Positions 8,218 to 59,092 of a stretch of DNA of 64,000 bases are shown piece by piece. Under the pieces are notes generated by a model that saw only the letters and a program-made list of their open reading frames with translations, was not told the origin of the DNA and did no database searches. The DNA lies in assembly GCF_030384885.1 (NCBI RefSeq), contig NZ_CP128613.1; one strand, written 5' to 3'. Source of the stretch: Escherichia coli. GTDB taxonomy: Bacteria; Pseudomonadota; Gammaproteobacteria; Enterobacterales; Enterobacteriaceae. Each line of letters opens with the position of its first letter. The first letter of the stretch is position 1. A program made the translations under genes and the position numbers.

Positions 8218-8381
8218 CGCCCGACTCTCTTATGTTGTGTTGTGATGAGCAAAGCGTGCCAGAAGGTTAACCAAACATTAAAGAATAAAAAAAGATTGGC
8301 TATAACTTGCGGGTATATGTTGGGGGATTAAAAAGGCGGAAGAAATCCGCCTCATATTGCTGACAAAGTGCGCTTTGTCCA

Positions 8382-8485
8382 TGCCATATGCGGCGCGAAC
8401 GCCTTACACGGCCTACAAAAGTTTGCAAATTCAATAAATTGCAGAATTCATGTAGGCCTGATAAGCGAAGCGCATCAGGCATTTT
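8382..8485. repeat. REP/BIME palindromic cluster
   Basis: gccatatgcggcgcgaacgccttacacggcctac ... gtaggcctgataagcgaagcgcatcaggc between sbp and pfkA. Confidence 0.75.
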
Positions 8486-8536
8486 TGCTTCTGTCATCGG
8501 TTTCAGGCTAAAGGAATCTGCCTTTTTCCGAAATCA

Positions 8537-9499
8537 TTAATACAGTTTTTTCGCGCAGTCCAGCCAGTCGCCTTTGAACGGACGCTTCATGTTTTCGATA
8601 GCGTCGATGATGTCGTGGTGAACCAGCTGTTCGTTCTGGATACCTACACAACGACCGCCGTAACCTGCCAGCAGCAGTTCAATGGCGTAAGCACCCATAC
8701 GGGAAGCCAGAATACGGTCGTAAGGCACCGGAGAACCACCACGCTGAATGTGGCCCAACACAGTTGCACGGGTTTCACGACCAGTTTCTTTCTCGATGAA
8801 ATGCGCCAGTTCGTCAACATCACACATGTGTTCAGTAATCGCCACGATCGCGTGTTTTTTACCTTTCGCGATACCCGCTTTGATTTCGTTTACCAGGTCT
8901 TCACGGCTGAATTCAACTTCCGGAACTACAACGAATTCACAGCCACCGGCAATGGCCGCAGCCAGGGTCAGATCGCCACAATAACGACCCATCACTTCCA
9001 CCACGGAAATACGCTGGTGAGAAGAAGAGGTGTCACGCAGACGGTCGATCGCTTCTACAACGGTGCTCAGCGCAGTGAAGAAACCGATAGTGTAGTCAGT
9101 GCCTTTGATGTCGTTGTCGATAGTGCCCGGCAGGCCGATGCACGGGAAGCCCATTTCGGTCAGACGCATTGCACCCATGTAGGAACCGTCACCGCCGATA
9201 ACCACCAGCGCGTCGATACCACGTTTTTTCAGGTTTTCGATAGCCACAGCGCGGATGTTCTCGTCGCGGAATTCCGGGAAGCGTGCAGAACCGAGGAACG
9301 TACCGCCACGGTTAATCATGTCAGATACGCTGTAACGGTCTAGCTGTACCATACGGTCTTCATACAGACCCAGATAGCCGTCATAAATACCCATTACTTC
9401 CAGACCTTCTGTCAGCGCAGAACGAACAACCCCGCGAATTGCGGCGTTCATGCCTGGCGCATCACCGCCGCTTGTCAACACACCGATTTTCTTAATCAT
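8537..9499 (-). CDS. pfkA: 6-phosphofructokinase I
   Basis: ORF 8537-9595; start set at [23 protein letters not shown] (320 aa). Confidence 0.95.
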
Positions 9500-23872: not shown

Positions 23873-24421
23873 ATGGCTGCTCTTACTGCAAGCTGTATTG
23901 CCTTGAATATTCAGGGCAATAGCGATTATTCCATTCTGAGACAGCTGGCTACAATAGCATGTCAAAATGGTTTCATTACCGATTCTCATACGTTTCTGCA
24001 GACCCTACTGCGACGCGAAAAAATGCACTCCACAGGATTTGGTTCTGGCATTGCCGTACCACACGGTAAAAGAGCCTGCGTTAAACTACCCTTCGTGTTA
24101 TTCGCCCGCAAAGCACAGGCCATTAACTGGAAAGCCAGCGACGGCTAAGGCGAAAACCTGATTGTTAATCGTCTCGCCATCCCACATGGCTGGAGCGAAC
24201 AGGAACGCCGTTTTCGTGGATTTTTTATTACCCTCGCCCAACCGCTCGAGGTGAATAACGAAGTCATTAACCATGTGTTGATCGCCTGTGCCGCCGCTGA
24301 TGCGCGCCACGAGTTGAAAATATTCAGCTCTCTGGCAAGCGTACTATGTACGTATCCGGCGGAGACTATTGCCGGGCTAACGGGATATGAAGGGTGTATA
24401 GCGTTACTTCGTCAGGAGTGA
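23873..24421 (+). pseudogene. frvA: PTS EIIA-type (frv-like) remnant interrupted by an in-frame TAA
   Basis: One frame reads ...FGSGIAVPHGKRACV...ASDG-stop(24146-24148)-GENLIVNRLAIPHGWSEQ... to 24421; two IPHG-type EIIA motifs; lies where frvABXR sits in K-12, which spans several kb. Confidence 0.5.
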
Positions 24422-25788: not shown

Positions 25789-28095
25789 CTACATCCCGTA
25801 GCGTTCGGCAATAGTGGCATGTTTCTCTTCATTCGCCCCGGCTTCTTTGGCGAGACGCCACCAGCACAACGGATGTTCCCAGTCAGCGGTCAATTCGTGC
25901 AAGGTCTTATCGATATCACCTTTAGAAATTGAACGCGGCGCACTGATAACAAAGTAGAATGCGGGAAGTGGCTGCGCATCTTCACCCTGATGACTGTCCG
26001 TTAACGTATAGTCGTCATTACTGTTGCTCCAGTAGTACCAGTTTCGTTCACGGAGCGCCTCACGGAAAGTATTAAACTCTTCTTCACCAGGCATGACACC
26101 TTCGCAGAACCAGGACTCGCCGTATTCGGTCGGGATAATGGTGTTCAGGCACCCATAAAGCGGAGTGAAATTCTTCCGTTCTTCCTCATCCTCTGGTTGG
26201 GTGTTCAATATTTCTGCATCGAATACCACAACTTCATCAACATGTTGCGGATAATCGGTCCGGTAAGTTGGCTCAATGATCCTTGCTGTTACCGGCCCAA
26301 TACGTTGAGCATAGTAATAGCGGTATTCATAATTTTCCCGGAAGCGGATGTTTAACAGCCCCCATTTTTCGTCAATAAAACCTTCGCCTTCCGTGAGCTC
26401 GATTTCCAGTTCAGCAGCAATAGCACGAACCAAATCCCATTGTTGCAGGATGCTGGCGGTCGCCATGATATCCCACTGGAGATTGCGAATATCTTCTTCA
26501 CGGCTAATCATCAGTTGCTGCAATTGTTGTAAATAATCCAGCTGTCGATCCCAGGCTTCCTGTTTTTGTGCTGCCCAAGAGCACATGCGATAAACGCCAA
26601 CCCACTCACGCCCTTTTTCGTGTTGCAGCAACTGTTGCCCAATCGACTCCAGTTCACTCCAGTCTTCCTGTTGGTTGAGCACTCGCGCACGGAACCACAA
26701 GGCCATATGTAGCAGCCCCGCCTGTTCATACTGCTTCGCCAGGTGCTCAATGGTTTGCAGATCGTCACGGTGGAGCAATAAATCCAACAGATCGAAGCAA
26801 AGACCATTATCTTCCTGGATGTGGCTTTCGACGTAGCGTTGCAGAAGTTCAATCGACTCATCAATCGCATTACAGGCGTTTAACGCATTGACCAGTTTGC
26901 CCAGCAATTCCGCATCATCTGGCGCGTTCAGGTAAGCGCGGCGGAATGTTTCGACGTCTTTTTCTGGATCTGGTTGCGTTTCTTCATCGCTATTTTCAGG
27001 TACTTCTACAACCGGACGAGCAAGCAACTCTGCTTCTTTGGCGGCGATTTTTTCACTCAGTTCGAGAAACTCACGATCAACCCCCAGTAACACGCGTAAT
27101 TTTGGCATGTGTCGCTGGGCCAGTTTCATCGCTATTTTGGCAACCCAGACGGATTCACGCTCCAGCGCCAGGGTAATTTGCAGTTTCGCCAGATCAACCA
27201 CTTTGCGGTGCGCTCCGGCCTGCGAGCGGTGCTCCAGCATTTTTTGGATGATGCGCGCCAGTTGCCAGTTGTTTCTTTGTGGATGACGGGGAAGTAACAC
27301 AGTAATGATTTTCAGCCATGACCCCCATGAATGGGGAGTCAGATCTGACCAACGCGGTAATTCCTCCCAGACTTCTTCGTCCTGCCCGCATAACGCCATG
27401 ATGTACAGTTTTTTGAGGTGATTACTAATGCGGTCGCGGCCCCAGTAATCATTGGCTTCTGTCAGCTCATCAATCAGTATGCGTGCTTCATCATAACGCT
27501 GAAGTTCAATCAGAATATCGGCACGAGTATAAAGTAATGCATCAATATCATCTTCCCCGGCTGCTTTAACTGCGTCGATTTGTCGATCCAGATAAGCCAA
27601 TGCCTCCTCTATTCTTTTGGAATCTATCAGTGCACTGGCATATTCAGTGGACAAACACTGAAAACAGCTCCAGGTCGGATCAATCCGCGCGATGGTTTCT
27701 TCACATACCGCCATACGTTCATTCGCCCAGCCAGGTGCATCAATATTTTCGTAGCAGGCGGATAAATCCTGGGTAACGCAGATAGATTGTGGGCAATCTT
27801 TTGTCTCTTCCCGGTGCGCTTTTTCAAACAGCGCCACTACGTCAGGCAGTACTTTTTCACCTTCTTCGCGGTTAGTCAGGCGATGGCGCATTTCCCAGTG
27901 ACCAATAAAAATCTCCAGCCACGGATTTTTTGCCACCTGGGTAAGTGCTTTTACTTCAGGTAACAGCGAATCGCACTTTTCCATTTGCAGGTGCATAACG
28001 CCTTCCGAATAATCATCGATAAGTTGCGGAATATATTCCTGCCCGGCATCGCGTAACTCCTTAGTATATTTGTGATACCACTCCCATATATCCAT
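25789..28095 (-). CDS. hypothetical 768-aa acidic, predominantly alpha-helical protein, partner of the Hsp90-like ATPase
   Basis: Long uninterrupted ORF; ATG lies 1 nt after the stop of the upstream gene with RBS aagga; sequence is helix-rich and repeat-like; no catalytic motif recognised. Confidence 0.8.
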   Translation of the reverse strand: MDIWEWYHKYTKELRDAGQEYIPQLIDDYSEGVMHLQMEKCDSLLPEVKALTQVAKNPWLEIFIGHWEMRHRLTNREEGEKVLPDVVALFEKAHREETKDCPQSICVTQDLSACYENIDAPGWANERMAVCEETIARIDPTWSCFQCLSTEYASALIDSKRIEEALAYLDRQIDAVKAAGEDDIDALLYTRADILIELQRYDEARILIDELTEANDYWGRDRISNHLKKLYIMALCGQDEEVWEELPRWSDLTPHSWGSWLKIITVLLPRHPQRNNWQLARIIQKMLEHRSQAGAHRKVVDLAKLQITLALERESVWVAKIAMKLAQRHMPKLRVLLGVDREFLELSEKIAAKEAELLARPVVEVPENSDEETQPDPEKDVETFRRAYLNAPDDAELLGKLVNALNACNAIDESIELLQRYVESHIQEDNGLCFDLLDLLLHRDDLQTIEHLAKQYEQAGLLHMALWFRARVLNQQEDWSELESIGQQLLQHEKGREWVGVYRMCSWAAQKQEAWDRQLDYLQQLQQLMISREEDIRNLQWDIMATASILQQWDLVRAIAAELEIELTEGEGFIDEKWGLLNIRFRENYEYRYYYAQRIGPVTARIIEPTYRTDYPQHVDEVVVFDAEILNTQPEDEEERKNFTPLYGCLNTIIPTEYGESWFCEGVMPGEEEFNTFREALRERNWYYWSNSNDDYTLTDSHQGEDAQPLPAFYFVISAPRSISKGDIDKTLHELTADWEHPLCWWRLAKEAGANEEKHATIAERYGM

Positions 28096-28096
28096 T

Positions 28097-29932
28097 TTAT
28101 TTTCCTTGATTAATTAAGACAGGAATAACCTGAGTAAAATCTTCCAGTGCCTGATGTAAATCCCACTGCTGTTCTTTATTACCACTGGAGCACAAAATCA
28201 CTTTCAGCGATTTTAATAACCGTAATGCTGCCGCTGGCTGTTGATGGTGTTGTAATGCCGTCACCAGTTGCATGACACAGGGGTTATTAAGATTGATATA
28301 CAGACTTGAAGTTTTAGTCTTTTGGATTTGCGAGGTAAATTGCCGCGCCAGCATTAACGCTGCGGTGCTGATGCGTTTATCTGCGTCATCCTGTTCGAGA
28401 ATTTGTTTTAATTCTGCTTCGCGGTCTGGCGTGACCACGAGCGGTAAAACCGCTGGTTCGAAGCGGGAGATAATTAATTGCTCGCCGTCGCAAAGATGCT
28501 CTTCCAGATAAGCAACCTGCTCTTCAGGTAATTCTGCCAGGCTGAACAACTGCTCATTACCCGTTTGCGTACCGACTTCGATAATCCGGCAGTGATATAA
28601 CAGCGCCCAACGACGTAAAAATGGCACCACCGCATAACGATCGCCACGGGCTACGGGCCGTTGCAGAATATGAAACAACATCTCTTCAAAACCGCCGTCG
28701 CGGCTTAACAGAATATGAATGCTGTTATTAACGCGTAAATCCTTCGCCAGCAACGCCCCTTTTGACGTTGGCACCTGCAAGCGATCTTTGAGCAAATCAA
28801 ACAGACGGTCATCACATAATGCCGCACCGAGCAACGCTTCGTTGTGGCGCATTAATACACGCCGCCAGATTTCTGGCTGATTTTGTGCGAGATCGGACAA
28901 ACCAGAAATCAGCGCCTCTTTTAACGCCTCCTGCACCGCAACCCAGGTTTCGTCCCGCTGGAGATCTTCCCGGCTCGCCGTAGGCGTTAGTTTCGATGAC
29001 TCAATCACGCCGCCAATAAATCCGGCCCAGGGAGGTAACAACTCACGCGCTTCATCATCCAGTAACATACCGCGCAAAAACAGCGACAGGTTGCGGTTAT
29101 CGCTGGTGCCGTAGGTTGCGCCATCCTGAATCCATAAAATCCCGACCGCATCGCTCATACCCGCTGGCACCACCGGAATGGTGCAAATCGGTTCAAAGGA
29201 GGATTCAAACTGGGCGGCAAAGGCGAGATTTTTACGCTGCACCAGCGCGCGGTGTATGGTTACGCCTTCGGGGGCAACTTCACGCCACGGTGGTTGAAGT
29301 TTATTTACCGGCTCGCTGGCATCGCCGACATAGACCGGTTCGTGCAGCAATATGCAGTAGCGGGAAAGAACGCGGTTCAGCAGATTATTACTCGCCAGAT
29401 GGCTGTACTCTTCTTTGAGCGTCAGAATCACCTGCGTTCCCGGCGCCGAGGACTGATGCGGCGTAACGGTATATTTTTGCCCGTCGGTAGAGTGGTATTT
29501 CCAGCTCTGATCCGGCGTTTGCCAGGATGTGGTCAACACCGTGACCTCTTTCGCCAACACAAAGGCCGACAAAAAACCGAGGCCGAACATACCAATTAAA
29601 CCGGTGTTGTCATCCTGCTGGCGCAACATTCGGGTATAACCCACGCCCACTGTCGCCAGGAAGCCGTGAATTTCGCTTTCTGTCAGACCCGCACCGGTAT
29701 CGGTAATGGTGATGGTGGACTTCGCCACGTCTGCCACTACACGAATTTGGTTATCCTTTGGCGCATCGGGCTGCTCAATCCTGCGGCGAACGATCGCATC
29801 ATGGCCGTTCTGCACCAGCTCGCGCACGGCAACTACGGGAGTGGAGTAAAGATGCTTACTGAGCACCTCAATTAAACCGTTTAAATTAACTTCTGTAGAA
29901 TATGAACTGCCAGGTAACTGTAATGTACTCAT
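28097..29932 (-). CDS. Hsp90/HtpG-like GHKL ATPase paralog (611 aa)
   Basis: Bergerat-fold motifs: N-box RELVQNGHDA, G1 box ITITDTGAGLT, G2 box GMFGLGFLSAFVLAKEVTV; length close to HtpG; in-frame stop two codons upstream of the ATG. Confidence 0.85.
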   Translation of the reverse strand: MSTLQLPGSSYSTEVNLNGLIEVLSKHLYSTPVVAVRELVQNGHDAIVRRRIEQPDAPKDNQIRVVADVAKSTITITDTGAGLTESEIHGFLATVGVGYTRMLRQQDDNTGLIGMFGLGFLSAFVLAKEVTVLTTSWQTPDQSWKYHSTDGQKYTVTPHQSSAPGTQVILTLKEEYSHLASNNLLNRVLSRYCILLHEPVYVGDASEPVNKLQPPWREVAPEGVTIHRALVQRKNLAFAAQFESSFEPICTIPVVPAGMSDAVGILWIQDGATYGTSDNRNLSLFLRGMLLDDEARELLPPWAGFIGGVIESSKLTPTASREDLQRDETWVAVQEALKEALISGLSDLAQNQPEIWRRVLMRHNEALLGAALCDDRLFDLLKDRLQVPTSKGALLAKDLRVNNSIHILLSRDGGFEEMLFHILQRPVARGDRYAVVPFLRRWALLYHCRIIEVGTQTGNEQLFSLAELPEEQVAYLEEHLCDGEQLIISRFEPAVLPLVVTPDREAELKQILEQDDADKRISTAALMLARQFTSQIQKTKTSSLYINLNNPCVMQLVTALQHHQQPAAALRLLKSLKVILCSSGNKEQQWDLHQALEDFTQVIPVLINQGK

Positions 29933-46418: not shown

Positions 46419-47204
46419 CTACGCGTCTTCCTGGGGAAGGATGATTTCAATTTGGCTGTCTTGTAAGCGTGATTTTAGCGCAGCGGGCGGCAGCTCGTCG
46501 GTAAAGAGCGCAGTGACCTGTGCCACGTTACCAATTTCAACCGCCGCCGAAGTATGATACTTAGTGTGATCGGCGACCAGCAGAATATTTCTCGCGTGCG
46601 CCATCATCGTTTTCACCACGTTAGCTTCGTTTACATCAAACTCCATCAACGCGCCATCGCTCTCAATCGCCCCAACGCTTGTTACCAGATAATCAGCCCG
46701 AAAATCGGCCACAAAGGAAGCCGCTGAAGGGCCAATGATCCCGCTATTATGAGAGCGCAACGTACCGCCGGGCACCATCACTTCAAAGCGCGGGTTGTGG
46801 TACAGAATATGCGCCACACGCAGGCTGTTCGTGATTATCCGCAAATGATTATGGTTAAGTAACGCCCGGGCGACATGTTCGACAGTCGTACCGATGGTGA
46901 TAAATATTGTCGATCCATCAGGAATATAGTCTGCCACCGCTTCGGCAATCGCTTTTTTCTCTTCAGTTTGCGAAACCTCACGCTGTTCGAACGCCGTATT
47001 AACGACGCTGGAGGCCCGACCCGCGCCACCGTGATGGCGCGTGATCAGCCCTTGCTCGCTTAATTTACGAATATCCCGGCGGACCGTCTGCGTGGAAACA
47101 TCCAGCAGATTTGCCAGCTCATCAATATTCATATACCCACGCTCGGCGATCAGCATGAGGAGTTGGTCGTGCCGCGGGTTACCGGTCAGTTCGGTAAGGC
47201 TCAT
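46419..47204 (-). CDS. yihW: DeoR-family repressor of the sulfoquinovose cluster
   Basis: ORF 46419-47228; start at MSLTELTGNPRHDQ (261 aa). Confidence 0.9.
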   Translation of the reverse strand: MSLTELTGNPRHDQLLMLIAERGYMNIDELANLLDVSTQTVRRDIRKLSEQGLITRHHGGAGRASSVVNTAFEQREVSQTEEKKAIAEAVADYIPDGSTIFITIGTTVEHVARALLNHNHLRIITNSLRVAHILYHNPRFEVMVPGGTLRSHNSGIIGPSAASFVADFRADYLVTSVGAIESDGALMEFDVNEANVVKTMMAHARNILLVADHTKYHTSAAVEIGNVAQVTALFTDELPPAALKSRLQDSQIEIILPQEDA

Positions 47205-47237: not shown

Positions 47238-48134
47238 TTATACAAAAAGTGACAAAAAAGATCGGGTTTGATCACAGTCAGGGATCCCGGCACGCCCACC
47301 GGGACGCGTGCATTTTAACGCCGCCACACCGCTGGCAAAGCGGACGGAATCCGCTAAATCTCCACCTGTTGCCAGCGCCACCGCCAATGCGCCGTGAAAA
47401 ACATCGCCCGCACCGGTAGTATCTACCACATCAACTTTGAAAGCTGGCTGATGCTGCCGCCCGCCATTCTCCAGCCAGTCACAGCCTGCACTGCCCTGAG
47501 TAACATAGACATGTCCATTTGTGAGCGTTTGTGCCTGTTTTAGGGCACTCGCCATCTCTTTCACGCCCGTTAGCCGCGCCAGACCCGGTTCTGAAAAAGC
47601 AGCATGATCGCTTAACGCCACCAGCTCACTGATATCCTGCGGCGTAATATCACCGTCCAGCACGGTCATCACGCCCACCTGCCGCGCCAGAGTGAAGGCT
47701 TTTTTTGCGCCGTCGTGCCAGCGTACATCTGCCAGCACCACGTCCCACTGAGAGAAATCAATTTCCTCCAACCACTCTGCGTCAGGCAGCAGGTCCGGGC
47801 TGGGATAGTTAATGATGATTCGCTCGCCTTTGGCATCCACCATGATGGCGGATTGCGAAGATTTCGCCTGGTTATACCGCTTGGTGTAACGGGTGTTAAC
47901 GCCCCAGGATTCCAGCTCTGCCAGCAGGCTGTTTCCCGTGTCGTCGTCACCGACGCGACCAATAAAATCGACCTGCGCACCCAGTCTGGCCGCCGCAACT
48001 GCTGCTGTAGCCGCTGGCCCGCCGCCAACTTCCGTATAATTTTTCGCCACGTATTTACCGATCTCCGTCGGCAACCCTTCCACGTAATAGATGCGATCCA
48101 TCACGGTAATTCCTACACAAGCAACACGAATCAT
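47238..48134 (-). CDS. yihV: 6-deoxy-6-sulfofructose kinase
   Basis: ORF 47238-48140; start at MIRVACVGITVMD (298 aa); ribokinase-family motifs. Confidence 0.9.
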   Translation of the reverse strand: MIRVACVGITVMDRIYYVEGLPTEIGKYVAKNYTEVGGGPAATAAVAAARLGAQVDFIGRVGDDDTGNSLLAELESWGVNTRYTKRYNQAKSSQSAIMVDAKGERIIINYPSPDLLPDAEWLEEIDFSQWDVVLADVRWHDGAKKAFTLARQVGVMTVLDGDITPQDISELVALSDHAAFSEPGLARLTGVKEMASALKQAQTLTNGHVYVTQGSAGCDWLENGGRQHQPAFKVDVVDTTGAGDVFHGALAVALATGGDLADSVRFASGVAALKCTRPGGRAGIPDCDQTRSFLSLFV

Positions 48135-48301: not shown

Positions 48302-49198
48302 ATGGCAGCAATCGCGTTTATCGGTTTAGGACAAATGGGTTCGCCAATGGCGAGCAATTTATTGCAGCAAGGGCATCAACTTTGCGTCTTCGATGTGAAT
48401 GCCGAAGCCGTACAGCATCTGGTAGACAAAGGGGCGACTCCCGCTGCTAACCCAGCGCAGGCCGCTAAAGATGCCGAATTTATCATTACCATGTTGCCGA
48501 ATGGCGATCTGGTGCGCAGCGTGTTGTTCGGTGAAAACGGCATTTGCGAAAGCTTATCTACCGATGCGCTGGTCATTGATATGTCGACCATCCATCCGCT
48601 GCAAACCGATAAATTGATTGCCGATATGCAAGCCAAAGGCTTCAGCATGATGGATGTTCCGGTAGGCCGTACTTCTGCAAATGCCATTACCGGTACTCTG
48701 TTACTGCTGGCTGGCGGCACCGCTGAACAAGTTGAACGCGCCACGCCGATCCTGATGGCGATGGGCAGCGAGTTGATCAACGCGGGCGGTCCGGGCATGG
48801 GGATCCGCGTTAAGCTTATCAACAACTACATGAGCATCGCGCTCAATGCGCTGTCGGCAGAAGCCGCCGTTTTGTGCGAAGCCCTCAATCTTCCCTTCGA
48901 TGTTGCCGTCAAGGTAATGAGCGGTACTGCCGCCGGTAAAGGCCACTTCACCACTTCCTGGCCGAACAAAGTCCTCAGTGGAGATCTTTCTCCCGCCTTC
49001 ATGATCGATCTTGCCCATAAGGATCTTGGCATCGCCCTCGATGTCGCCAACCAGTTGCATGTGCCGATGCCGCTGGGGGCCGCCTCACGGGAGGTTTATA
49101 GCCAGGCGCGCGCAGCGGGTCGAGGTCGCCAGGACTGGTCCGCCATTCTGGAGCAGGTCCGTGTCAGTGCCGGGATGACTGCCAAAGTAAAAATGTAA
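48302..49198 (+). CDS. yihU: 3-sulfolactaldehyde reductase
   Basis: 298-aa ORF; NAD-binding GLGQMG. Confidence 0.92.
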
Positions 49199-49221: not shown

Positions 49222-50100
49222 ATGAATAAGTACACCATCAACGACATTACGCGCGCATCGGGCGGTTTTGCCATGCTGGCAGTCGATCAGCGCGAAGCCA
49301 TGCGCATGATGTTTGCCGCGGCTGGCGCACCCGCTCCAGTAGCCGATAGCGTTTTAACTGATTTCAAAGTTAACGCCGCGAAGGCCCTTTCACCTTATGC
49401 ATCGGCGATTCTGGTAGATCAACAATTCTGCTACCGCCAGGTGGTTGAGCAAAACGCGATTGCCAAAAGTTGCGCCATGATTGTCGCCGCCGATGAGTTC
49501 ATCCCTGGCAACGGTATTCCGGTAGATAGCGTAGTCATTGACCGCAAAATCAACCCGCTACAAATCAAACAAGACGGCGGTAAAGCCTTGAAACTACTGG
49601 TGCTGTGGCGTAGCGATGAAGATGCGCAGCAACGCCTGGATATGGTGAAAGAGTTCAACGAACTGTGCCATTCAAACGGTCTGGTGAGCATCATTGAGCC
49701 GGTTGTTCGCCCGCCGCGTCGTGGCGATAAATTCGATCGCGAACAAGCGATCATCGATGCCGCCAAAGAACTGGGCGACAGTGGCGCTGACCTCTACAAA
49801 GTTGAAATGCCGCTTTACGGAAAAGGTCCGCAACAAGAGCTTCTCAGTGCTTCACAACGTCTGAATGACCATATCAATATGCCGTGGGTGATCCTCTCTT
49901 CCGGCGTCGACGAAAAACTGTTCCCGCGTGCCGTGCGCGTGGCGATGACGGCGGGCGCATCGGGCTTCCTGGCCGGTCGGGCCGTCTGGGCATCGGTCGT
50001 CGGTTTACCAGACAACGAACTGATGCTGCGTGACGTTTGCGCACCGAAATTACAACAACTTGGCGATATCGTCGACGAAATGATGGCTAAACGCCGTTAA
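49222..50100 (+). CDS. yihT: sulfofructose-phosphate aldolase
   Basis: 292-aa ORF; synteny. Confidence 0.92.
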
Positions 50101-50115
50101 CATGAGGATACAAAA

Positions 50116-51357
50116 ATGAAATGGTTTAACACCTTAAGTCACAACCGTTGGCTGGAACAGGAAACCGATCGCATCTTTGATTTTGGTAAAAATTCCGTAG
50201 TACCGACTGGCTTTGGCTGGTTAGGCAATAAAGGGCAAATCAAAGAAGAGATGGGCACCCATCTGTGGATCACCGCCCGTATGTTGCACGTGTATTCCGT
50301 TGCTGCGGCGATGGGTCGACCTGGCGCTTACTCGTTGGTTGATCATGGTATCAAAGCCATGAACGGCGCACTGCGCGATAAAAAATATGGCGGCTGGTAT
50401 GCCTGTGTCAATGACGAGGGCGTGGTGGATGCCTCCAAACAGGGCTATCAACATTTCTTTGCCCTGCTGGGTGCCGCCAGTGCCGTCACAACGGGTCACC
50501 CGGAAGCGCGTAAGCTGCTCGATTACACCATTGAAATTATCGAGAAATACTTCTGGAGCGAAGAAGAGCAGATGTGCCTGGAATCCTGGGACGAAGCCTT
50601 CAGCAAAACCGAAGAGTACCGCGGCGGCAATGCCAATATGCACGCGGTGGAAGCTTTCTTGATTGTTTATGACGTAACGCATGACAAAAAATGGCTGGAT
50701 CGCGCGATTCGCGTGGCTTCCGTCATTATCCACGACGTCGCCAGAAATAATCATTATCGCGTTAACGAGCACTTCGATACCCAGTGGAATCCGCTGCCGG
50801 ATTACAACAAAGATAACCCGGCGCACCGCTTCCGCGCATTCGGAGGCACGCCGGGCCACTGGATCGAATGGGGCCGTTTAATGCTGCATATCCACGCTGC
50901 CCTGGAAGCCCGTTGCGAACAGCCTCCGGCCTGGTTGCTAGAAGATGCCAAAGGTCTGTTCAACGCTACCGTGCGCGATGCCTGGGCGCCCGATGGTGCC
51001 GACGGGATTGTTTATACCGTTGACTGGGAAGGCAAACCGGTGGTCCGCGAACGTGTGCGTTGGCCTATCGTCGAAGCGATGGGTACAGCTTATGCGCTCT
51101 ACACCGTTACCGGCGATCGCCAGTACGAAACCTGGTATCAGACATGGTGGGACTACTGCATTAAGTACCTGATGGACTATGAAAATGGTTCCTGGTGGCA
51201 GGAGCTGGATGCGGACAATAAGGTCACCACCAAAGTCTGGGACGGTAAACAGGATATTTATCACCTGCTGCATTGCCTGGTGATCCCGCGTATCCCGTTA
51301 GCGCCAGGCCTGGCTCCGGCAGTTGCGGCGGGTCTGCTGGACGTGAATGCCAAATAA
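50116..51357 (+). CDS. yihS: sulfoquinovose isomerase
   Basis: 413-aa ORF; synteny. Confidence 0.92.
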
Positions 51358-51475
51358 CTGACTGAAAACCCTAACCCTCTCCCCAAAGGGGAGAGGGGAC
51401 CGCCCGGCGCAGTTTTTTGGTTTGACATCAGCCTCATGGGAGGCTGTATGCCGTTTTTTAATTAAGGTGCCTCGT

Positions 51476-52378
51476 ATGCAAATCACCAACATGCATTGCA
51501 GTGGACAAACCGTTTCACTTGCCGCGGGGGATTATCACGCGACTATCGTGACGGTTGGTGCTGGTCTGGCTGAATTAACTTTTCAGGGTTGTCATTTAGT
51601 CATCCCGCACAAACCCGAAGAGATGCCGCTGGCGCATCTGGGTAAAGTGCTTATTCCGTGGCCGAACCGGATCGCCAACGGCTGTTACCGCTATCGGGGA
51701 CAGGAATATCAGTTACCCATTAATGAACATAGTTCAAAAGCCGCTATTCACGGGCTGCTTGCCTGGCGAGACTGGCAAATTAGCGAATTAACCGCCACCA
51801 GCGTTACCCTGACAGCTTTTCTACCGCCCAGTTACGGCTATCCGTTTATGCTGGCTTCGCAGGTTGTTTATTCGCTCAATGCTCGCACGGGCCTTTCCGT
51901 TGAGATCGCAAGCCAGAATATTGGTACTGTGACCGCACCTTATGGTGTGGGTATTCATCCTTATTTAACCTGCAACTTAACATCTGTTGATGACTATCTT
52001 TTCCAGCTTCCGGCAGAACAGGTTTATGCCGTCGATGAGCACGCAAATCCGACAACGCTTCACCACGTTGATGAGCTGAATTTAAATTTCACGCGGGCGA
52101 CAAAAATAGCCGCGACAAAAATAGACCATACCTTTAAAACCGCTAATGATCTGTGGGAAATGACCATTACCCATCCACAGCAGGCACTTTCGGTGAGTCT
52201 TTGTTCCGATCAACCCTGGGTGCAGGTTTATAGCGGCGAAAAATTACAGCGTCAGGGACTGGCAATTGAACCTATGAGTTGCCCGCCTAACGCCTTTAAT
52301 TCCGGCACCGATTTATTATTACTGGAACCAGGAAAAACGCATCGCCTGTTTTTTAATATTCACGGGCAGCACAATTAA
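51476..52378 (+). CDS. yihR: aldose-1-epimerase family protein
   Basis: ORF 51422-52378; start placed at the ATG (MQITNMHCSG) preceded by aagg; the true start could be up to 18 codons upstream. Confidence 0.85.
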   Translation: MQITNMHCSGQTVSLAAGDYHATIVTVGAGLAELTFQGCHLVIPHKPEEMPLAHLGKVLIPWPNRIANGCYRYRGQEYQLPINEHSSKAAIHGLLAWRDWQISELTATSVTLTAFLPPSYGYPFMLASQVVYSLNARTGLSVEIASQNIGTVTAPYGVGIHPYLTCNLTSVDDYLFQLPAEQVYAVDEHANPTTLHHVDELNLNFTRATKIAATKIDHTFKTANDLWEMTITHPQQALSVSLCSDQPWVQVYSGEKLQRQGLAIEPMSCPPNAFNSGTDLLLLEPGKTHRLFFNIHGQHN

Positions 52379-52438
52379 TTTCATTAAGAAAAAAACGAGA
52401 TCATTGTTTAGGGTTGTATTTACACAACAGGAAATATT

Positions 52439-53314
52439 ATGGACTTTTTTACGTTATTTTCGCCAGATGGGGCCATGCTGGAAACAAACGTGGTATGTAT
52501 CGTTATCGCGTTGATGTTTCTTTATACCTTTGTGGGGATATGCGCGGGATTTGGTGGCGGTTTAACCACCATGCCACTCGTCACGTTAATGCTCCCCGTA
52601 AAAATGGCAACACCACTTTCGGTAATTGTCGGCACCGCAACCGCCTTGTACGCCACCTGGCTATCACGCAAAGAAACGGATTGGCGCTCGGCAATGGTGC
52701 TGATTATTTTCTCATTTTTGGGAATACCCGTCGGTTTATATGCGCTGTCATATTTACCCGACCATTTTATGAAAGTGGGCTTAGGTGGATTTCTTATCCT
52801 CTACTCCTTTTACAGCATGTTTATTCCTCGCCTGCCGATTTATGACCGTAACTGGATCGCCGCACCTATCGGCGCAGTAGCTGGCGCATTAGGCGCGGCG
52901 TTCTCAACCAACGGGCCGCCGATGGTTATCTACGGGATGCTGCGTAACTTAGGTCCGGCGGCATTTCGCGGCACACTGAACGCCTTCTTCACCGCAAACA
53001 ACATCGCGGTGATCGGCGGGCTGGCGACCAGCGGAATTTTGACTGTTTCTATCTTTAAACTGGTGCTGTTTTGTATTCCCACCATGATCCTCGGTTCACT
53101 GATTGGACAATATGTGCATAAACGCATTTCGGTCAAAGTGTTTCGTGTGATGGTCTTTTTATTGTTGATTGCCTCCGGTTCTATGTTGATAAAAGGTGCG
53201 TTGGGAATTCCCGCCGCTGCCGCACTTCTGCCTCCGTTTACCTTGTTAGTTATACTGCAACTGGCATTTGGTAAAAAAGTGGCGGCAATCCGCCGAGCTG
53301 AAGAAAGTAAATAA
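52439..53314 (+). CDS. TauE/SafE (TSUP) family membrane transporter, possible sulfite/sulfonate exporter
   Basis: 291-aa polytopic membrane ORF with RBS agga; Gly-rich helices typical of DUF81/TauE; embedded in the sulfoquinovose cluster. Confidence 0.7.
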   Translation: MDFFTLFSPDGAMLETNVVCIVIALMFLYTFVGICAGFGGGLTTMPLVTLMLPVKMATPLSVIVGTATALYATWLSRKETDWRSAMVLIIFSFLGIPVGLYALSYLPDHFMKVGLGGFLILYSFYSMFIPRLPIYDRNWIAAPIGAVAGALGAAFSTNGPPMVIYGMLRNLGPAAFRGTLNAFFTANNIAVIGGLATSGILTVSIFKLVLFCIPTMILGSLIGQYVHKRISVKVFRVMVFLLLIASGSMLIKGALGIPAAAALLPPFTLLVILQLAFGKKVAAIRRAEESK

Positions 53315-53421
53315 TCACTTGCGCGGGTTTTAATTTATACCCGCACACATTCTTTGATTAATGAAACCTGTAATAACAGGATGGCATGAAATATTAGTTT
53401 TATACTCTATGGAGATTATTT

Positions 53422-55458
53422 ATGGATACGCCACGCCCACAGTTATTAGATTTTCAATTTCATCAGAATAACGACAGTTTTACTCTACGTTTTCAAGACC
53501 GTCTTATTTTAATCCATAGCAAAGATAATCCTTGCTTATCGATTGGCTCAGGTATAGCGGATATCGATATGTTCCGCGGTAATTTCAGCATTAAAGATAA
53601 ATTGCAGGAGAAGATTGCGCTGACCGACGCCATCGTCAGCCAGTCACCGGATGGCTGGTTAATCCATTTCTGCCGTGGTTCTGACATTAGCGCCACGCTG
53701 CATATCTCTACTGACGAACAAGGCCGTTTAGTGCTGAAACTGCAAAACGATGATCGTCACCATAACCGCATCTGGCTGCGTCTCGCCGCACAGCCGGAGG
53801 ACCATATCTACGGCTGCGGTGAACAGTTTTCCTATTTTGATCTACGCGGCAAACCGTTCCCACTGTGGACCAGCGAGCAGGGTGTTGGTCGCAACAAACA
53901 AAGCTATGTCACCTGGCAGGCCGACTGCAAAGAGAATGCGGGCGGTGATTACTACTGGACCTTTTTCCCGCAGCCAACCTTTGTCAGCACGCAGAAGTAT
54001 TACTGCCATGTTGATAACAGTTGCTATATGAACTTCGACTTTAGTGCCCCGGAATACCATGAACTGGCGCTGTGGGAAGACAAAGCAACGCTGCGTTTTG
54101 AATGTGCTGATACATACATCTCCCTGCTGGAAAAATTAACCGCACTGCTGGGACGCCAGCCAGAACTGCCCGACTGGATTTATGACGGAGTAACGCTCGG
54201 TATTCAGGGCGGGACGGAAGTGTGCCAGAAAAAACTGGACACCATGCGTAACGCGGGTGTGAAGGTTAACGGCATCTGGGCGCAGGACTGGTCCGGGATC
54301 CGTATGACCTCTTTTGGCAAACGTGTGATGTGGAACTGGAAGTGGAACAGTGAAAACTACCCACAGTTAGATTCCCGCATCAAGCAATGGAAAGAAGAAG
54401 GCGTGCAGTTCCTCGCCTACATCAACCCGTATGTTGCCAGCGATAAAGATCTCTGCGAAGAAGCGGCGCAACATGGCTATCTGGCAAAAGATGCCTCTGG
54501 CGGTGACTATCTGGTGGAATTTGGGGAGTTTTACGGCGGCGTTGTCGATCTCACTAATCCGGAAGCCTACGCCTGGTTCAAGGAAGTGATCAAAAAGAAC
54601 ATGATTGAACTCGGCTGCGGCGGCTGGATGGCTGACTTCGGCGAGTATCTGCCCACCGACACGTACCTGCATAACGGCGTTAGCGCCGAAATTATGCATA
54701 ACGCCTGGCCCGCACTGTGGGCGAAATGTAACTACGAAGCCCTTGAAGAAACGGGCAAGCTTGGCGAGATCCTTTTCTTTATGCGCGCCGGTTCTACCGG
54801 TAGCCAGAAATACTCCACCATGATGTGGGCGGGCGACCAGAACGTCGACTGGAGTCTCGACGATGGCCTGGCGTCGGTCGTCCCGGCAGCGCTGTCGCTG
54901 GCAATGACCGGACATGGTTTGCATCACAGTGACATTGGCGGTTATACCACCCTGTTTGAGATGAAGCGCAGCAAAGAGCTGCTGCTGCGCTGGTGTGATT
55001 TCAGCGCCTTCACGTCGATGATGCGCACCCACGAAGGCAACCGTCCGGGCGACAACTGGCAGTTTGACGGCGACGCGGAAACTATTGCCCATTTTGCCCG
55101 TATGACCACCGTCTTCACCACCCTGAAACCTTACCTGAAAGAGGCCGTCGCGCTGAATGCGAAGTCCGGCCTGCCGGTTATGCGCCCGCTGTTCCTGCAT
55201 TACGAAGACGATACACACACCTACACCCTGAAATATCAGTACCTGTTAGGCCGCGACATTCTGGTCGCTCCGGTGCATGAACAAGGCCGTAGCGACTGGA
55301 CGCTCTATCTGCCGGAGGATAACTGGGTCCACGCCTGGACAGGTGAAGCGTTCCGGGGCGGGGAAGTTACCGTTAATGCGCCCATCGGTAAACCGCCGGT
55401 CTTTTATCGCGCCGATAGCGAATGGGCGGCACTGTTCGCGTCGTTAAAAAGCATCTAA
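53422..55458 (+). CDS. yihQ: sulfoquinovosidase (GH31)
   Basis: 678-aa ORF; GH31-like sequence. Confidence 0.93.
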   Translation: MDTPRPQLLDFQFHQNNDSFTLRFQDRLILIHSKDNPCLSIGSGIADIDMFRGNFSIKDKLQEKIALTDAIVSQSPDGWLIHFCRGSDISATLHISTDEQGRLVLKLQNDDRHHNRIWLRLAAQPEDHIYGCGEQFSYFDLRGKPFPLWTSEQGVGRNKQSYVTWQADCKENAGGDYYWTFFPQPTFVSTQKYYCHVDNSCYMNFDFSAPEYHELALWEDKATLRFECADTYISLLEKLTALLGRQPELPDWIYDGVTLGIQGGTEVCQKKLDTMRNAGVKVNGIWAQDWSGIRMTSFGKRVMWNWKWNSENYPQLDSRIKQWKEEGVQFLAYINPYVASDKDLCEEAAQHGYLAKDASGGDYLVEFGEFYGGVVDLTNPEAYAWFKEVIKKNMIELGCGGWMADFGEYLPTDTYLHNGVSAEIMHNAWPALWAKCNYEALEETGKLGEILFFMRAGSTGSQKYSTMMWAGDQNVDWSLDDGLASVVPAALSLAMTGHGLHHSDIGGYTTLFEMKRSKELLLRWCDFSAFTSMMRTHEGNRPGDNWQFDGDAETIAHFARMTTVFTTLKPYLKEAVALNAKSGLPVMRPLFLHYEDDTHTYTLKYQYLLGRDILVAPVHEQGRSDWTLYLPEDNWVHAWTGEAFRGGEVTVNAPIGKPPVFYRADSEWAALFASLKSI

Positions 55459-55503: not shown

Positions 55504-56889
55504 ATGAGTCACATCACAACGGAAGATCCGGCTACTTTACGTCTGCCCTTTAAAGAGAAACTCTCTTACGGTATCGGCGATCTGGCCTCTAACATCCTGC
55601 TGGATATCGGTACGCTTTATCTTTTGAAGTTTTATACCGACGTTCTGGGGCTGCCCGGCACCTATGGCGGTATTATCTTTTTGATCTCGAAATTCTTTAC
55701 CGCCTTTACCGATATGGGTACCGGCATCATGCTCGATTCCCGGCGTAAGATCGGTCCAAAAGGCAAATTCCGCCCTTTCATTTTGTACGCCTCATTCCCG
55801 GTCACTCTGCTGGCGATCGCCAACTTTGTCGGCACACCGTTTGATGTCACCGGTAAAACGGTGATGGCCACCATTCTGTTTATGCTTTACGGACTGTTTT
55901 TCAGCATGATGAACTGCTCCTACGGCGCAATGGTCCCCGCTATCACCAAAAACCCCAACGAACGCGCATCGCTGGCAGCATGGCGTCAGGGTGGCGCTAC
56001 ATTGGGCCTGCTGCTGTGTACGGTGGGATTCGTACCAGTTATGAATCTTATCGAAGGTAATCAGCAACTTGGCTATATCTTCGCCGCCACGCTATTTTCA
56101 CTGTTCGGCCTGCTGTTTATGTGGATCTGCTACTCGGGCGTGAAAGAGCGTTATGTCGAAACCCAACCTACCAATCCAGCGCAAAAGCCTGGCTTGTTGC
56201 AGTCTTTCCGCGCAATTGCGGGTAACCGCCCACTGTTCATTCTGTGTATTGCCAACCTCTGCACCTTAGGGGCGTTTAACGTCAAGCTCGCCATCCAGGT
56301 CTATTACACCCAGTACGTACTTAACGATCCCATCCTGTTGTCGTATATGGGATTTTTCAGCATGGGCTGTATTTTCATCGGCGTGTTCCTGATGCCTGGT
56401 GCAGTCAGACGTTTTGGTAAGAAGAAGGTCTATATCGGCGGCCTGCTGATTTGGGTGCTGGGCGATCTGCTCAACTATTTCTTCGGCGGCGGCTCGGTCA
56501 GTTTTGTGGCGTTCTCCTGCCTGGCATTCTTCGGCTCGGCGTTTGTTAACAGCCTGAACTGGGCACTGGTTTCCGACACCGTCGAGTACGGCGAGTGGCG
56601 CACCGGCGTTCGTTCGGAAGGTACGGTCTACACCGGCTTCACCTTCTTTCGCAAAGTATCTCAGGCGCTGGCAGGTTTCTTCCCAGGCTGGATGCTGACG
56701 CAAATCGGCTATGTGCCAAACGTGGCGCAGGCTGACCATACCATCGAAGGTTTACGCCAGCTGATCTTCATCTACCCAAGCGCACTGGCGGTAGTCACCA
56801 TTGTGGCGATGGGTTGCTTCTACAGTCTGAACGAGAAAATGTACGTCCGCATTGTTGAAGAAATAGAAGCCCGTAAACGCACGGCATAA
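55504..56889 (+). CDS. yihP: GPH-family sugar:cation symporter
   Basis: ORF 55471-56889; start at MSHITTEDPATL after RBS gggaga (461 aa). Confidence 0.9.
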   Translation: MSHITTEDPATLRLPFKEKLSYGIGDLASNILLDIGTLYLLKFYTDVLGLPGTYGGIIFLISKFFTAFTDMGTGIMLDSRRKIGPKGKFRPFILYASFPVTLLAIANFVGTPFDVTGKTVMATILFMLYGLFFSMMNCSYGAMVPAITKNPNERASLAAWRQGGATLGLLLCTVGFVPVMNLIEGNQQLGYIFAATLFSLFGLLFMWICYSGVKERYVETQPTNPAQKPGLLQSFRAIAGNRPLFILCIANLCTLGAFNVKLAIQVYYTQYVLNDPILLSYMGFFSMGCIFIGVFLMPGAVRRFGKKKVYIGGLLIWVLGDLLNYFFGGGSVSFVAFSCLAFFGSAFVNSLNWALVSDTVEYGEWRTGVRSEGTVYTGFTFFRKVSQALAGFFPGWMLTQIGYVPNVAQADHTIEGLRQLIFIYPSALAVVTIVAMGCFYSLNEKMYVRIVEEIEARKRTA

Positions 56890-56929: not shown

Positions 56930-58333
56930 ATGTCTGACCATAATCCACTGACATTAAAACTGAATCTGCGGGAAAAAATCGCTTATGGCATGGGCGACGT
57001 CGGTTCGAATTTAATGCTTAGCATCGGCACTCTGTATCTCCTCAAATTTTATACCGATGAATTAGGGATGCCTGCTTACTATGGCGGGATTATCTTTCTG
57101 GTGGCGAAATTCTTTACCGCGTTTACCGATATGCTCACCGGATTTTTACTCGACTCGCGAAAAAATATTGGGCCTAAAGGCAAATTTCGTCCCTTTATTT
57201 TATATGCAGCGGTTCCGGCGGCGTTAATTGCAACGCTCCAGTTTATCGCCACCACTTTTAGTTTGCCGATTAAAACGACGATTGCCACCGCGCTGTTTAT
57301 GATGTTTGGACTTTCATACAGTCTGATGAACTGCTCGTATGGCGCGATGATCCCAGCAATTACCAAAAACCCCAATGAGCGCGCGCAGCTTGCGGCTTAC
57401 CGCCAGGGTGGTGCAACCATAGGGCTATTGATTTGTACCGTAGCATTTATTCCATTGCAGTCGCTTTTTTCTGACTCCACTGTCGGTTATGCCTGCGCGG
57501 CACTGATGTTCTCCATTGGTGGCTTTATTTTTATGATGCTGTGCTACAGAGGCGTCAAAGAGCATTATGTGGACACGACGCCAACCGGACATAAAGCCAG
57601 TATTCTCAAATCTTTTTGCGCGATATTTCGTAATCCGCCATTGCTGGTTTTATGCATTGCTAACCTGTGTACCCTGGCGGCATTTAATATCAAACTGGCA
57701 ATTCAGGTCTATTACACCCAGTATGTGCTGAATGATATTAATTTATTGTCGTGGATGGGATTCTTCAGTATGGGATGCATCCTCATCGGCGTATTGCTGG
57801 TGCCATTAACTGTAAAATGTTTTGGTAAAAAACAGGTTTATTTAGCTGGCATGGTGCTGTGGGCGGTGGGGGATATCCTGAATTATTTCTGGGGCAGTAA
57901 CTCTTTCACTTTCGTCATGTTCTCTTGTGTCGCCTTTTTTGGTACGGCCTTTGTAAACAGCCTGAACTGGGCGCTGGTACCGGATACCGTAGATTATGGT
58001 GAATGGAAAACAGGTATACGTGCCGAAGGTTCTATTTATACCGGTTATACCTTCTTTCGTAAAATTTCAGCCGCACTTGCTGGCTTCTTGCCAGGCATTA
58101 TGCTGACGCAAATCGGTTATGTTCCCAACATCGCGCAAAGCGATGCAACATTACAGGGTTTGCGTCAGCTCATTTTTATTTGGCCTTGTGCGCTGGCGAT
58201 AATTGCTGCATTGACGATGGGATTCTTTTACACGCTCAATGAAAAACGTTTTGCGATGATTATTGAGGAAGTTAACCAACGCAAAAATAAAGAGATGGCG
58301 ACAGAAGAAAAAACGGCTTCCTTAACGTTATAA
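56930..58333 (+). CDS. yihO: GPH-family sulfoquinovose transporter
   Basis: ORF 56924-58333; ATG start after RBS aaggag (467 aa); paralog of yihP. Confidence 0.9.
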   Translation: MSDHNPLTLKLNLREKIAYGMGDVGSNLMLSIGTLYLLKFYTDELGMPAYYGGIIFLVAKFFTAFTDMLTGFLLDSRKNIGPKGKFRPFILYAAVPAALIATLQFIATTFSLPIKTTIATALFMMFGLSYSLMNCSYGAMIPAITKNPNERAQLAAYRQGGATIGLLICTVAFIPLQSLFSDSTVGYACAALMFSIGGFIFMMLCYRGVKEHYVDTTPTGHKASILKSFCAIFRNPPLLVLCIANLCTLAAFNIKLAIQVYYTQYVLNDINLLSWMGFFSMGCILIGVLLVPLTVKCFGKKQVYLAGMVLWAVGDILNYFWGSNSFTFVMFSCVAFFGTAFVNSLNWALVPDTVDYGEWKTGIRAEGSIYTGYTFFRKISAALAGFLPGIMLTQIGYVPNIAQSDATLQGLRQLIFIWPCALAIIAALTMGFFYTLNEKRFAMIIEEVNQRKNKEMATEEKTASLTL

Positions 58334-58399: not shown

Positions 58400-59092
58400 A
58401 TGAAAAAGATTAATGCAATAATTCTATTATCCTCTCTGACCTCTGCCTCGGTATTTGCTGGCGCATACGTCGAAAACAGGGAGGCATATAATCTCGCCTC
58501 CGATCAGGGCGAGGTTATGCTACGTGTGGGTTATAACTTCGATATGGGCGCGGGTATTATGTTAACCAATACCTACACCTTTCAGCGAGAAGATGAACTA
58601 AAACATGGCTACAATGAAATTGAAGGTTGGTATCCGTTATTCAAACCAACTGATAAATTAACCATCCAGCCCGGTGGCTTAATTAATGATAAAAGCACCG
58701 GTTCCGGTGGTGCAGTATATCTGGACGTCAACTATAAATTTGTACCATGGTTTAATCTGACAGTGCGAAATCGCTATAACCATAATAACTACAGTTCAAC
58801 AGATTTGAACGGGGAGCTGGATAATAATGACACCTATGAAATTGGTACCTACTGGAATTTTAAAATCACCGAGAAATTCTCCTATACATTTGAGCCACAT
58901 TATTTTATACGCGTAAATGACTTTAATAGCAGCAATGGAAAAGATCATCATTGGGAAATCACTAATACCTTCCGTTACCGTATTAACGAAAACTGGCTCC
59001 CTTATTTCGAATTACGCTGGTTAGATCGTAATATAGAACCATACCACCGCGAGCAAAACCAGATTCGTATCGGGACGAAGTATTTCTTCTGA
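58400..59092 (+). CDS. ompL: outer membrane porin L
   Basis: ORF 58334-59092; start at MKKINAIILLSSLTSASVFA (230 aa) with signal peptide; C-terminal ...GTKYFF. Confidence 0.9.
   Translation: MKKINAIILLSSLTSASVFAGAYVENREAYNLASDQGEVMLRVGYNFDMGAGIMLTNTYTFQREDELKHGYNEIEGWYPLFKPTDKLTIQPGGLINDKSTGSGGAVYLDVNYKFVPWFNLTVRNRYNHNNYSSTDLNGELDNNDTYEIGTYWNFKITEKFSYTFEPHYFIRVNDFNSSNGKDHHWEITNTFRYRINENWLPYFELRWLDRNIEPYHREQNQIRIGTKYFF

Follow-up and report, generated by a model that had tools for sequence, protein, structure and literature searches.

A TauE-type permease gene in the sulfoquinovose (yih) cluster of Escherichia coli, encoding a candidate accessory exporter of C3 sulfonates

The window analysed here is a 64,000-bp stretch of the Escherichia coli chromosome (NZ_CP128613.1), which extends from glpK to typA and contains the yih cluster for the catabolism of sulfoquinovose (SQ). 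Inside this cluster, between yihR and yihQ, lies a gene for a TauE-like permease (52439..53314, + strand), hereafter tauE, which is conserved at sulfoglycolysis loci of other genera and may encode an accessory exporter of the sulfonated end product of the pathway. The region examined is 100% identical to strain 2013C-4282 (NZ_CP027579), and the gene annotation was taken from that record. The gene starts with ATG and encodes 291 amino acids, as supported by the open reading frame (ORF) listing, Pfam and RefSeq (WP_000345431.1; product name 'sulfite exporter TauE/SafE family protein'), and a Shine-Dalgarno motif, AGGA, was read in the sequence 6 nt 5' of the start codon (52429..52432, + strand). 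A first-pass annotation of this DNA, made from the sequence alone, had claimed a 291-aa ORF with its own ribosome binding site between yihR and yihQ, and had placed it inside the SQ cluster; the former claim is borne out by the ORF listing, the AGGA motif and the annotation, and the latter by the annotation of the identical record.

The 5' neighbour of tauE is yihR, for sulfoquinovose mutarotase (51476..52378, + strand; annotation and tblastn map), and the 3' neighbour is yihQ, for sulfoquinovosidase (53422..55458, + strand). As annotated, these genes are part of a co-directional array in the order yihU-yihT-yihS-yihR-tauE-yihQ-yihP-yihO-ompL, which further comprises, all on the + strand, the genes for sulfolactaldehyde (SLA) reductase (yihU, 48302-49198), sulfofructose phosphate (SFP) aldolase (yihT, 49222-50100), SQ isomerase (yihS, 50116-51357), two GPH-type transporters of the major facilitator superfamily (MFS; yihP, 55504-56889, and yihO, 56930-58333) and the OmpL porin (ompL, 58400-59092). 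The genes csqR (46419-47204, - strand) and yihV for sulfofructose (SF) kinase (47238-48134, - strand) belong to a regulatory/kinase unit that is divergent from the array. The canonical K-12 cassette at the same locus (ompL-yihOPQRSTUVW) comprises ten genes, to which the window adds an eleventh.

The spacer between yihR and tauE is 60 bp in length (52379..52438, + strand), and since the promoter/terminator scan predicted no promoter on its + strand, we infer co-transcription with yihR. The spacer between tauE and yihQ (107 bp; 53315..53421, + strand) contains two short hairpins (GCGGGT/ACCCGC at 53323-53344 and CCTGT/ACAGG at 53367-53380) and no T-tract terminator; its RNA fold has an energy of -23.5 kcal/mol (z=-2.65 against shuffled sequences). 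In the vicinity of tauE, the scan predicted neither a sigma-70-like promoter nor an intrinsic terminator on the + strand, and the possibility of an own promoter or terminator for tauE was rejected on this basis and for the lack of a T-tract in the 3' spacer. Co-transcription of tauE with the flanking yih genes is plausible from these features.

A search of Pfam-A (hmmscan) with the predicted protein gave a single strong match, TauE (PF01925, formerly DUF81; the TSUP or TauE/SafE family), with an i-Evalue of 2.4e-35 and 122.8 bits, spanning residues 23-248 and model positions 2-235 of 237. This near full-length profile match supports the earlier assignment as a polytopic TauE/SafE (TSUP) membrane protein. 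None of the NCBIfam models, equivalogs included, matched the protein, so RefSeq's name 'sulfite exporter' denotes the family only.

The TSUP proteins are reported to have an architecture of 4+4 transmembrane (TM) helices. An AlphaFold2 model of TauE (82-sequence alignment; pLDDT 93.9, pTM 0.89) is all-helical and comprises two similar helix bundles (residues 16-128 and 138-255), each with the succession TM, short helix, TM, TM, TM; the helices are at 16-36, 40-49 (short), 54-75, 82-105 and 108-128 in the first half, and at 138-155, 159-168 (short), 173-198, 203-227 and 232-255 in the second half. An extra C-terminal helix is predicted at 259-290, and the hydropathy segments of the protein agree with the modelled helices. 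The model matches the 4+4 architecture of the TSUP family, with about eight predicted TM segments arranged as two halves. At the sequence level, the N- and C-terminal halves gave a BLASTP E of 0.33, and with hhalign, alignments of these halves matched in register (73-112 against 72-115) at only E=0.025 and a probability of 1.9%, so that a duplication is not significant at this level. A sequence search of PDB with TauE gave no match at E<=1, and Foldseek against PDB found no TSUP structure, with BacA as best match (TM-score 0.45, E about 0.01); the lack of a TSUP structure in the PDB copy used is a gap in the reference data and is not evidence against membership in the family. The weak resemblance to BacA was set aside as a functional lead, being uninformative on function.

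More than 250 homologues at >=80% identity were found, and the identity of TauE orthologues ranges from 65 to 99%. The orthologues from twelve genera have a mean column identity of 85%, the start MDFF is common to all aligned orthologues, and the length is also kept across genera. The Escherichia whittamii protein is 99% identical to that of the window, with only 94.6% identity of the DNA and a synonymous divergence (dS) of 0.24. Escherichia alleles of tauE differ by dS of 0.12-0.25 and a non-synonymous divergence (dN) of 0.003-0.009; the resulting dN/dS of 0.012-0.05 at high dS indicates strong purifying selection. The ORF is a real functional gene, with conservation far beyond chance. A search of 1.84 billion 50%-identity representatives gave one full-length cluster for the tauE clade, at 80% identity, and the closest full-length relatives outside the clade were <=38% identical; this gap in identity marks the clade as a tight, isolated TSUP subfamily. 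The nearest out-group TSUPs (P0127 and P0131; 36-38% identical) were considered as a guide to function and were discarded, as their neighbourhoods were unrelated or too short.

The distribution of tauE in E. coli was surveyed in 5,426 complete genomes, with the gene counted as present at >=80% coverage. Full-length yihQ is found in 3,886 of these genomes and tauE in 1,287 (24%), that is in about one third of the long yih cassettes; of the 1,295 genomes with a match, 1,287 reach this coverage, and intact examples are O157:H7 and ECONIH1. The gene is always chromosomal, and is single-copy in all genomes but one. Plasmid carriage as a vehicle of its spread was rejected, as only 4 tblastn matches were obtained and the two close ones were chromosomal-type records. 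In K-12 (JW5503, a BW25113 derivative) there is only a 198-bp spacer between yihR and yihQ with no gene in it, in agreement with the first-pass annotation, which had placed no named K-12 gene at this position.

Some 80 bp upstream of yihQ are retained in the K-12 spacer (82% identity over 79 bp to the distal part of the tauE-yihQ spacer); the resemblance of its left flank is only about 63%, and a coding remnant of tauE is not detectable in it. The haplotypes with and without tauE differ by about 5% in yihR and by about 3% in the 5' part of yihQ, and the whole yih cluster is a mosaic with 87-100% identity between strains. A clean recent deletion in K-12 was rejected on account of this partly kept spacer, the divergent left flank, the missing remnant and the mosaic cluster; as judged from these comparisons, the presence or absence of tauE is an old recombining polymorphism. 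Since tauE is found at the same position in Salmonella, a Citrobacter, Mangrovibacter, Superficieibacter and E. whittamii, its presence is probably ancestral and the K-12 haplotype derived.

The yihR-tauE-yihQ segment of the window strain (51400-55458) is unusually divergent: its yihQ has a 100% identical counterpart in a single complete E. coli genome, the identity being 95-99% in 14 genomes and 92-94.5% in the other approximately 3,900, and the genes flanking the segment, e.g. yihU and yihS, encode common E. coli proteins. In E. coli BE2-5 (locus L012, 1501-3090), an IS1A insertion cuts tauE after 90 bp and is followed by a truncated MFS gene, which implies an IS1-associated loss of most of tauE, of yihQ, and of part of a yihP/yihO gene.

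The neighbourhood of tauE was scanned in one genome per species (GTDB r220; 27 loci), with neighbours mapped by tblastn using as queries the Yih proteins of the window and those encoded by a Hafnia cluster. All 27 species loci place the gene within a sulfoglycolysis cluster, in one of three arrangements. Six loci have the order yihR-TauE-yihQ in a cluster of sulfo-EMP (sulfo-Embden-Meyerhof-Parnas) type (E. whittamii, S. enterica subsp. diarizonae, Citrobacter sp. wls619, Mangrovibacter, Superficieibacter, and a metagenome-assembled genome (MAG), UBA5654), as do the E. coli and S. enterica loci outside the scan. The order yihQ-TauE-MFS, also of the sulfo-EMP type, is found in ten loci (Kluyvera, C. 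freundii, Pantoea, Atlantibacter, Lelliottia and others) and, outside the scan, in Klebsiella and Cronobacter. In the remaining 11 loci, TauE ends an operon like those of the sulfo-Entner-Doudoroff (sulfo-ED) pathway (among others in Leminorella, Mixta, C. amalonaticus, Edwardsiella, Buttiauxella, Vibrio owensii, Aeromonas cavernicola and, at 65% identity, Craterilacuibacter), and a Hafnia locus outside the scan has the same arrangement with TauE at its end. These ED-like operons comprise genes for a LacI-type regulator and an SSF symporter divergent from genes for a dehydratase, an HpcH aldolase, an epimerase, a lactonase, a YihU-like reductase, an SDR protein and TauE. Co-location and co-orientation of tauE with sulfoglycolysis genes is thereby conserved in both pathway types, Salmonella, Klebsiella, Hafnia, Leminorella and Cronobacter included, and the subfamily as a whole occurs only within such clusters, in Enterobacterales, Vibrio, Aeromonas and one Chromobacteriaceae-like betaproteobacterium. 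For Hafnia, Leminorella and Vibrio, sulfo-ED clusters have been noted before (PMC7491151).

The sulfo-ED pathway has been described as oxidising SLA to sulfolactate (SL) (PMC9594981). The enterobacterial ED-like operons (L005, L006, L009 and others; at about 8328-9197) carry the gene for the YihU-like reductase inside the operon, which suggests that the ED-type clusters of these facultative anaerobes yield 2,3-dihydroxypropane-1-sulfonate (DHPS) rather than SL.

Some clusters combine elements of several pathways. In Enterobacter sp. ENT03 (locus L025, 1000-20800), an ED-like operon ending in TauE adjoins a sulfo-EMP yih cluster with csqR, yihV, yihU, yihT, yihS, yihQ and yihP, and without yihR and a TauE of its own; one TauE gene may serve two pathways in this strain. 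In C. amalonaticus (L023), a partial yihTUV-csqR set lies about 5 kb from the ED cluster. Hybrid clusters without TauE were observed in Serratia fonticola (L047), Yersinia intermedia (L048) and Hafnia paralvei (L049); in these, YihT and YihS are replaced by an aldolase of class II (PF01116) and an isomerase of the Fucose_iso_C type, next to csqR, yihV, yihU, yihQ, a pair of GPH-MFS genes and a KdgM/OmpL porin. Such clusters represent sulfo-EMP2-type enzymes in an enterobacterial yih frame.

With respect to transport, the EMP clusters encode GPH-MFS sugar symporters (YihO/YihP) and 10 of the 11 ED clusters an SSF symporter; the Aeromonas ED cluster has YihP/YihO-like proteins and an OmpL-like porin instead. 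Constant over both types are TauE and a reductase of the beta-hydroxyacid-dehydrogenase type (YihU-type). Three clusters with a single MFS gene were found (Klebsiella quasipneumoniae, Lelliottia nimipressuralis, and an Enterobacter MAG), all with TauE, and the MFS protein that they retain is YihO-like (70-79% identical to YihO). Conversely, all six TauE-less clusters examined (K-12, a strain of the E. cloacae complex, Serratia fonticola, Yersinia intermedia, Hafnia paralvei and Budvicia) carry two GPH-MFS genes. None of the clusters examined had just one inner-membrane transporter. The simplest reading of this pattern, in which single-MFS clusters all have TauE and TauE-less clusters all have two MFS genes, would be one carrier for import and one for export, with TauE able to replace YihP but not YihO.

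Deletion of yihO abolishes growth of K-12 on SQ (PMC6278857), and YihP has been put forward as DHPS exporter only as 'most likely' (PMC6278857; repeated in PMC12890257). YihP and YihO are paralogues of the sugar:cation symporter family and are 64% identical over 456 residues (BLASTP), which fits awkwardly with their division in the literature into an SQ importer and a DHPS exporter.

We propose that, in cells with tauE, YihU would turn SLA into DHPS, a dead-end C3 sulfonate, and that TauE, as an inner-membrane permease, would move DHPS, perhaps also SL, out of the cytoplasm; YihO/YihP, or the SSF symporter in ED-type clusters, would provide cation-coupled import of SQ and its glycosides. In E. 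coli, tauE would thus be a polymorphic eleventh member of the long yih cassette, and in the tauE-less haplotype of K-12 the DHPS would leave by another route, through YihP or an unrelated carrier. As it stands, we give slightly better than even chances to TauE being an accessory exporter of DHPS or of a related C3 sulfonate, possibly SL. A role in DHPS export gains real comparative support, which falls short of proof, from the presence of tauE in sulfoglycolysis clusters of all 27 species, in two pathways, and from its apparent substitution for YihP.

Several observations weigh against this role. The gene is absent from 2,599 of the 3,886 E. coli genomes with full yihQ; the first-pass annotation had regarded absence from most functional clusters as speaking against the proposed function, and within E. 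coli such absence is indeed found. In other taxa, tauE is intact and its conservation is wide. The yih cluster of K-12 is functional and supports growth on SQ (PMC6278857), so tauE is not required for DHPS export in K-12. Its absence from two thirds of the E. coli genomes with full yihQ, functional K-12 among them, marks tauE as accessory and not essential: as neither present in all clusters nor required, it is no core member of the sulfo-EMP (yih) pathway of E. coli. The substitution pattern is small, with three single-MFS and six TauE-less clusters, and most clusters carry both YihP and TauE, which would be redundant if both export DHPS. The ED-type reductase shares only 30% identity with YihU, so that DHPS as the common end product is itself a deduction. 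Finally, the direction and substrate of transport by TSUP proteins are not readable from sequence, and it was an uptake system that gave the family its name.

The proposed role has counterparts in other sulfoglycolysis clusters. SftE is a TauE-type protein predicted as SL/DHPS exporter of the sulfo-transaldolase (sulfo-TAL) clusters of Bacillus, Enterococcus and Clostridium (PMC7491151), and the sulfo-EMP cluster of Arthrobacter AK04 encodes a TauE permease that is a predicted C3-sulfonate exporter (PMC8873060). Like TauE of the window, these are PF01925 proteins encoded by a TSUP gene in an SQ cluster beside a sugar importer, with a proposed function in C3-sulfonate excretion. They differ from it in their hosts (Firmicutes and Actinobacteria as opposed to Gammaproteobacteria) and in their pathways, and the TauE of the window has the extra C-terminal helix (291 aa compared with about 240 aa) and belongs to an isolated clade (<=38% identity to other TSUPs); the comparison with SftE and the AK04 protein is by description. 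TauE of Cupriavidus necator H16 and SafE, as cited in PMC8873060, are likewise TSUP proteins with a proposed function in anion export during organosulfonate metabolism; these sulfite or sulfoacetate exporters of C2-sulfonate degradation occur together with sulfite-releasing, desulfonating enzymes, whereas the tauE cluster of the window encodes no sulfite-forming enzyme and its product is an intact sulfonate. YihP of K-12 shares with TauE the cluster and the proposed function, and clusters with YihO and TauE but without YihP exist; the two proteins are unrelated in fold and family, and YihP is 64% identical to the importer YihO.

A more far-reaching version of the proposal would make TauE, not YihP, the ancestral and principal DHPS exporter of the gammaproteobacterial EMP and ED clusters, with YihP as a second importer, e.g. 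for SQ glycosides; YihP always travels with YihO and the OmpL porin. We regard this version as tentative and rather unlikely. If true, the textbook scheme for K-12 would mis-assign the exporter, and the K-12 haplotype would have lost the real exporter and would leak DHPS through another carrier.

A reversed direction of transport is a further candidate explanation, in which TauE would be a TSUP-type uptake permease for SQ, sulfoquinovosyl-glycerol or another sulfonate, supplementing YihO/YihP or the SSF symporter. The name TSUP stands for '4-toluene sulfonate uptake permease' (as cited in PMC8873060), the sequence gives no direction, and SQ, no less than the C3-sulfonate product, is a constant of EMP and ED clusters alike. 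Every cluster, however, already holds at least one classical sugar:cation symporter (GPH-MFS or SSF), YihO is needed for growth of K-12 on SQ (PMC6278857), and the clusters with a single MFS or SSF protein would be left with a pair of importers and without a dedicated exporter for a charged, non-diffusing product. We consider an importer improbable.

We give about the same low probability to TauE acting as a safety valve that would export SL or SLA, and not as the main route for DHPS. An aldehyde dehydrogenase gene adjoins the Hafnia ED cluster and could provide for the formation of SL, TauE-type proteins have been proposed as SL exporters elsewhere (PMC8873060, PMC7491151), and the dispensability of tauE in K-12 fits an auxiliary role. 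Against this explanation, Leminorella and most ED loci have no aldehyde dehydrogenase (Aldedh) gene in the cluster and always have a YihU-like reductase, and the EMP clusters encode only the reductase, with DHPS as product.

The literal RefSeq name, i.e. a sulfite exporter (TauE sensu stricto), appears very improbable. Apart from the family and product names, it could draw on TauE of C. necator, which is described as such in the reference cited in PMC8873060. All neighbours of tauE are genes for sulfoglycolysis enzymes, regulators, sugar symporters or a porin, and no homologue of a C-S-cleaving, sulfite-releasing enzyme was found beside tauE in the clusters examined, so the name fits poorly; the end product of both pathways, EMP and ED, is an intact C3 sulfonate, DHPS or SL (PMC9594981). 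With <=38% identity of the clade to any other TSUP and no match to an NCBIfam equivalog, the name is a transfer at the family level. That tauE is a decaying passenger without present function in E. coli, as might be supposed from its absence in two thirds of the long cassettes and from the one IS1-truncated copy in strain BE2-5, is essentially excluded by the selection data (dN/dS of 0.012-0.05 at high dS), the >=80% coverage in 1,287 of 1,295 matching genomes, and the conserved length and start across genera.

The turnover of sulfoquinovose represents a large flux in the sulfur cycle, and its degradation in the gut feeds DHPS to sulfite-respiring bacteria that produce H2S. The exit of DHPS from the primary degrader has been tested less than any other step of the pathway, and is assigned to YihP in the K-12 model. 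With tauE found in Salmonella, in O157:H7, in about a quarter of the complete E. coli genomes and in ED-type clusters, a concrete candidate for a DHPS exporter is at hand, and K-12 does not represent the full sulfoquinovose cluster. The poorly characterised TSUP family would, if DHPS export by TauE is true, gain a defined physiological substrate.

The family-level annotation of tauE is already known, as are TauE-type exporters predicted in other sulfoglycolysis clusters. A 2025 survey of yih cassette variants in E. coli describes only a long 10-gene form and a short yihTUVW form (PMC12608037), and text searches of it found no mention of an eleventh gene. In the literature searched, we found no recognition of tauE in a third of the E. 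coli long cassettes and in Salmonella, nor of one narrow subfamily serving EMP- and ED-type clusters, nor of TauE replacing YihP in some species; an earlier mention of the gene in other Enterobacteriaceae by Denger et al. 2014, who first described the pathway, is possible.

Elsewhere in the window, a two-gene insert between yiiG and fdhD (25789-29932, - strand) encodes a hypothetical protein of 768 amino acids and an 'ATP-binding protein' of 611 amino acids; the latter has a weak PADLOC match to TmtA (E=5e-6) and the former has none, and the insert is possibly a defence-type islet. Two short pseudogene fragments of the frv operon (phosphotransferase system (PTS) fructose IIA component and frvR, according to RefSeq) are located at 23873-24421, and the operon appears to be deleted in the window strain. 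A transposase gene and a truncated hypothetical pseudogene (41206-43020, - strand) are located between an alpha/beta hydrolase gene and fabY.

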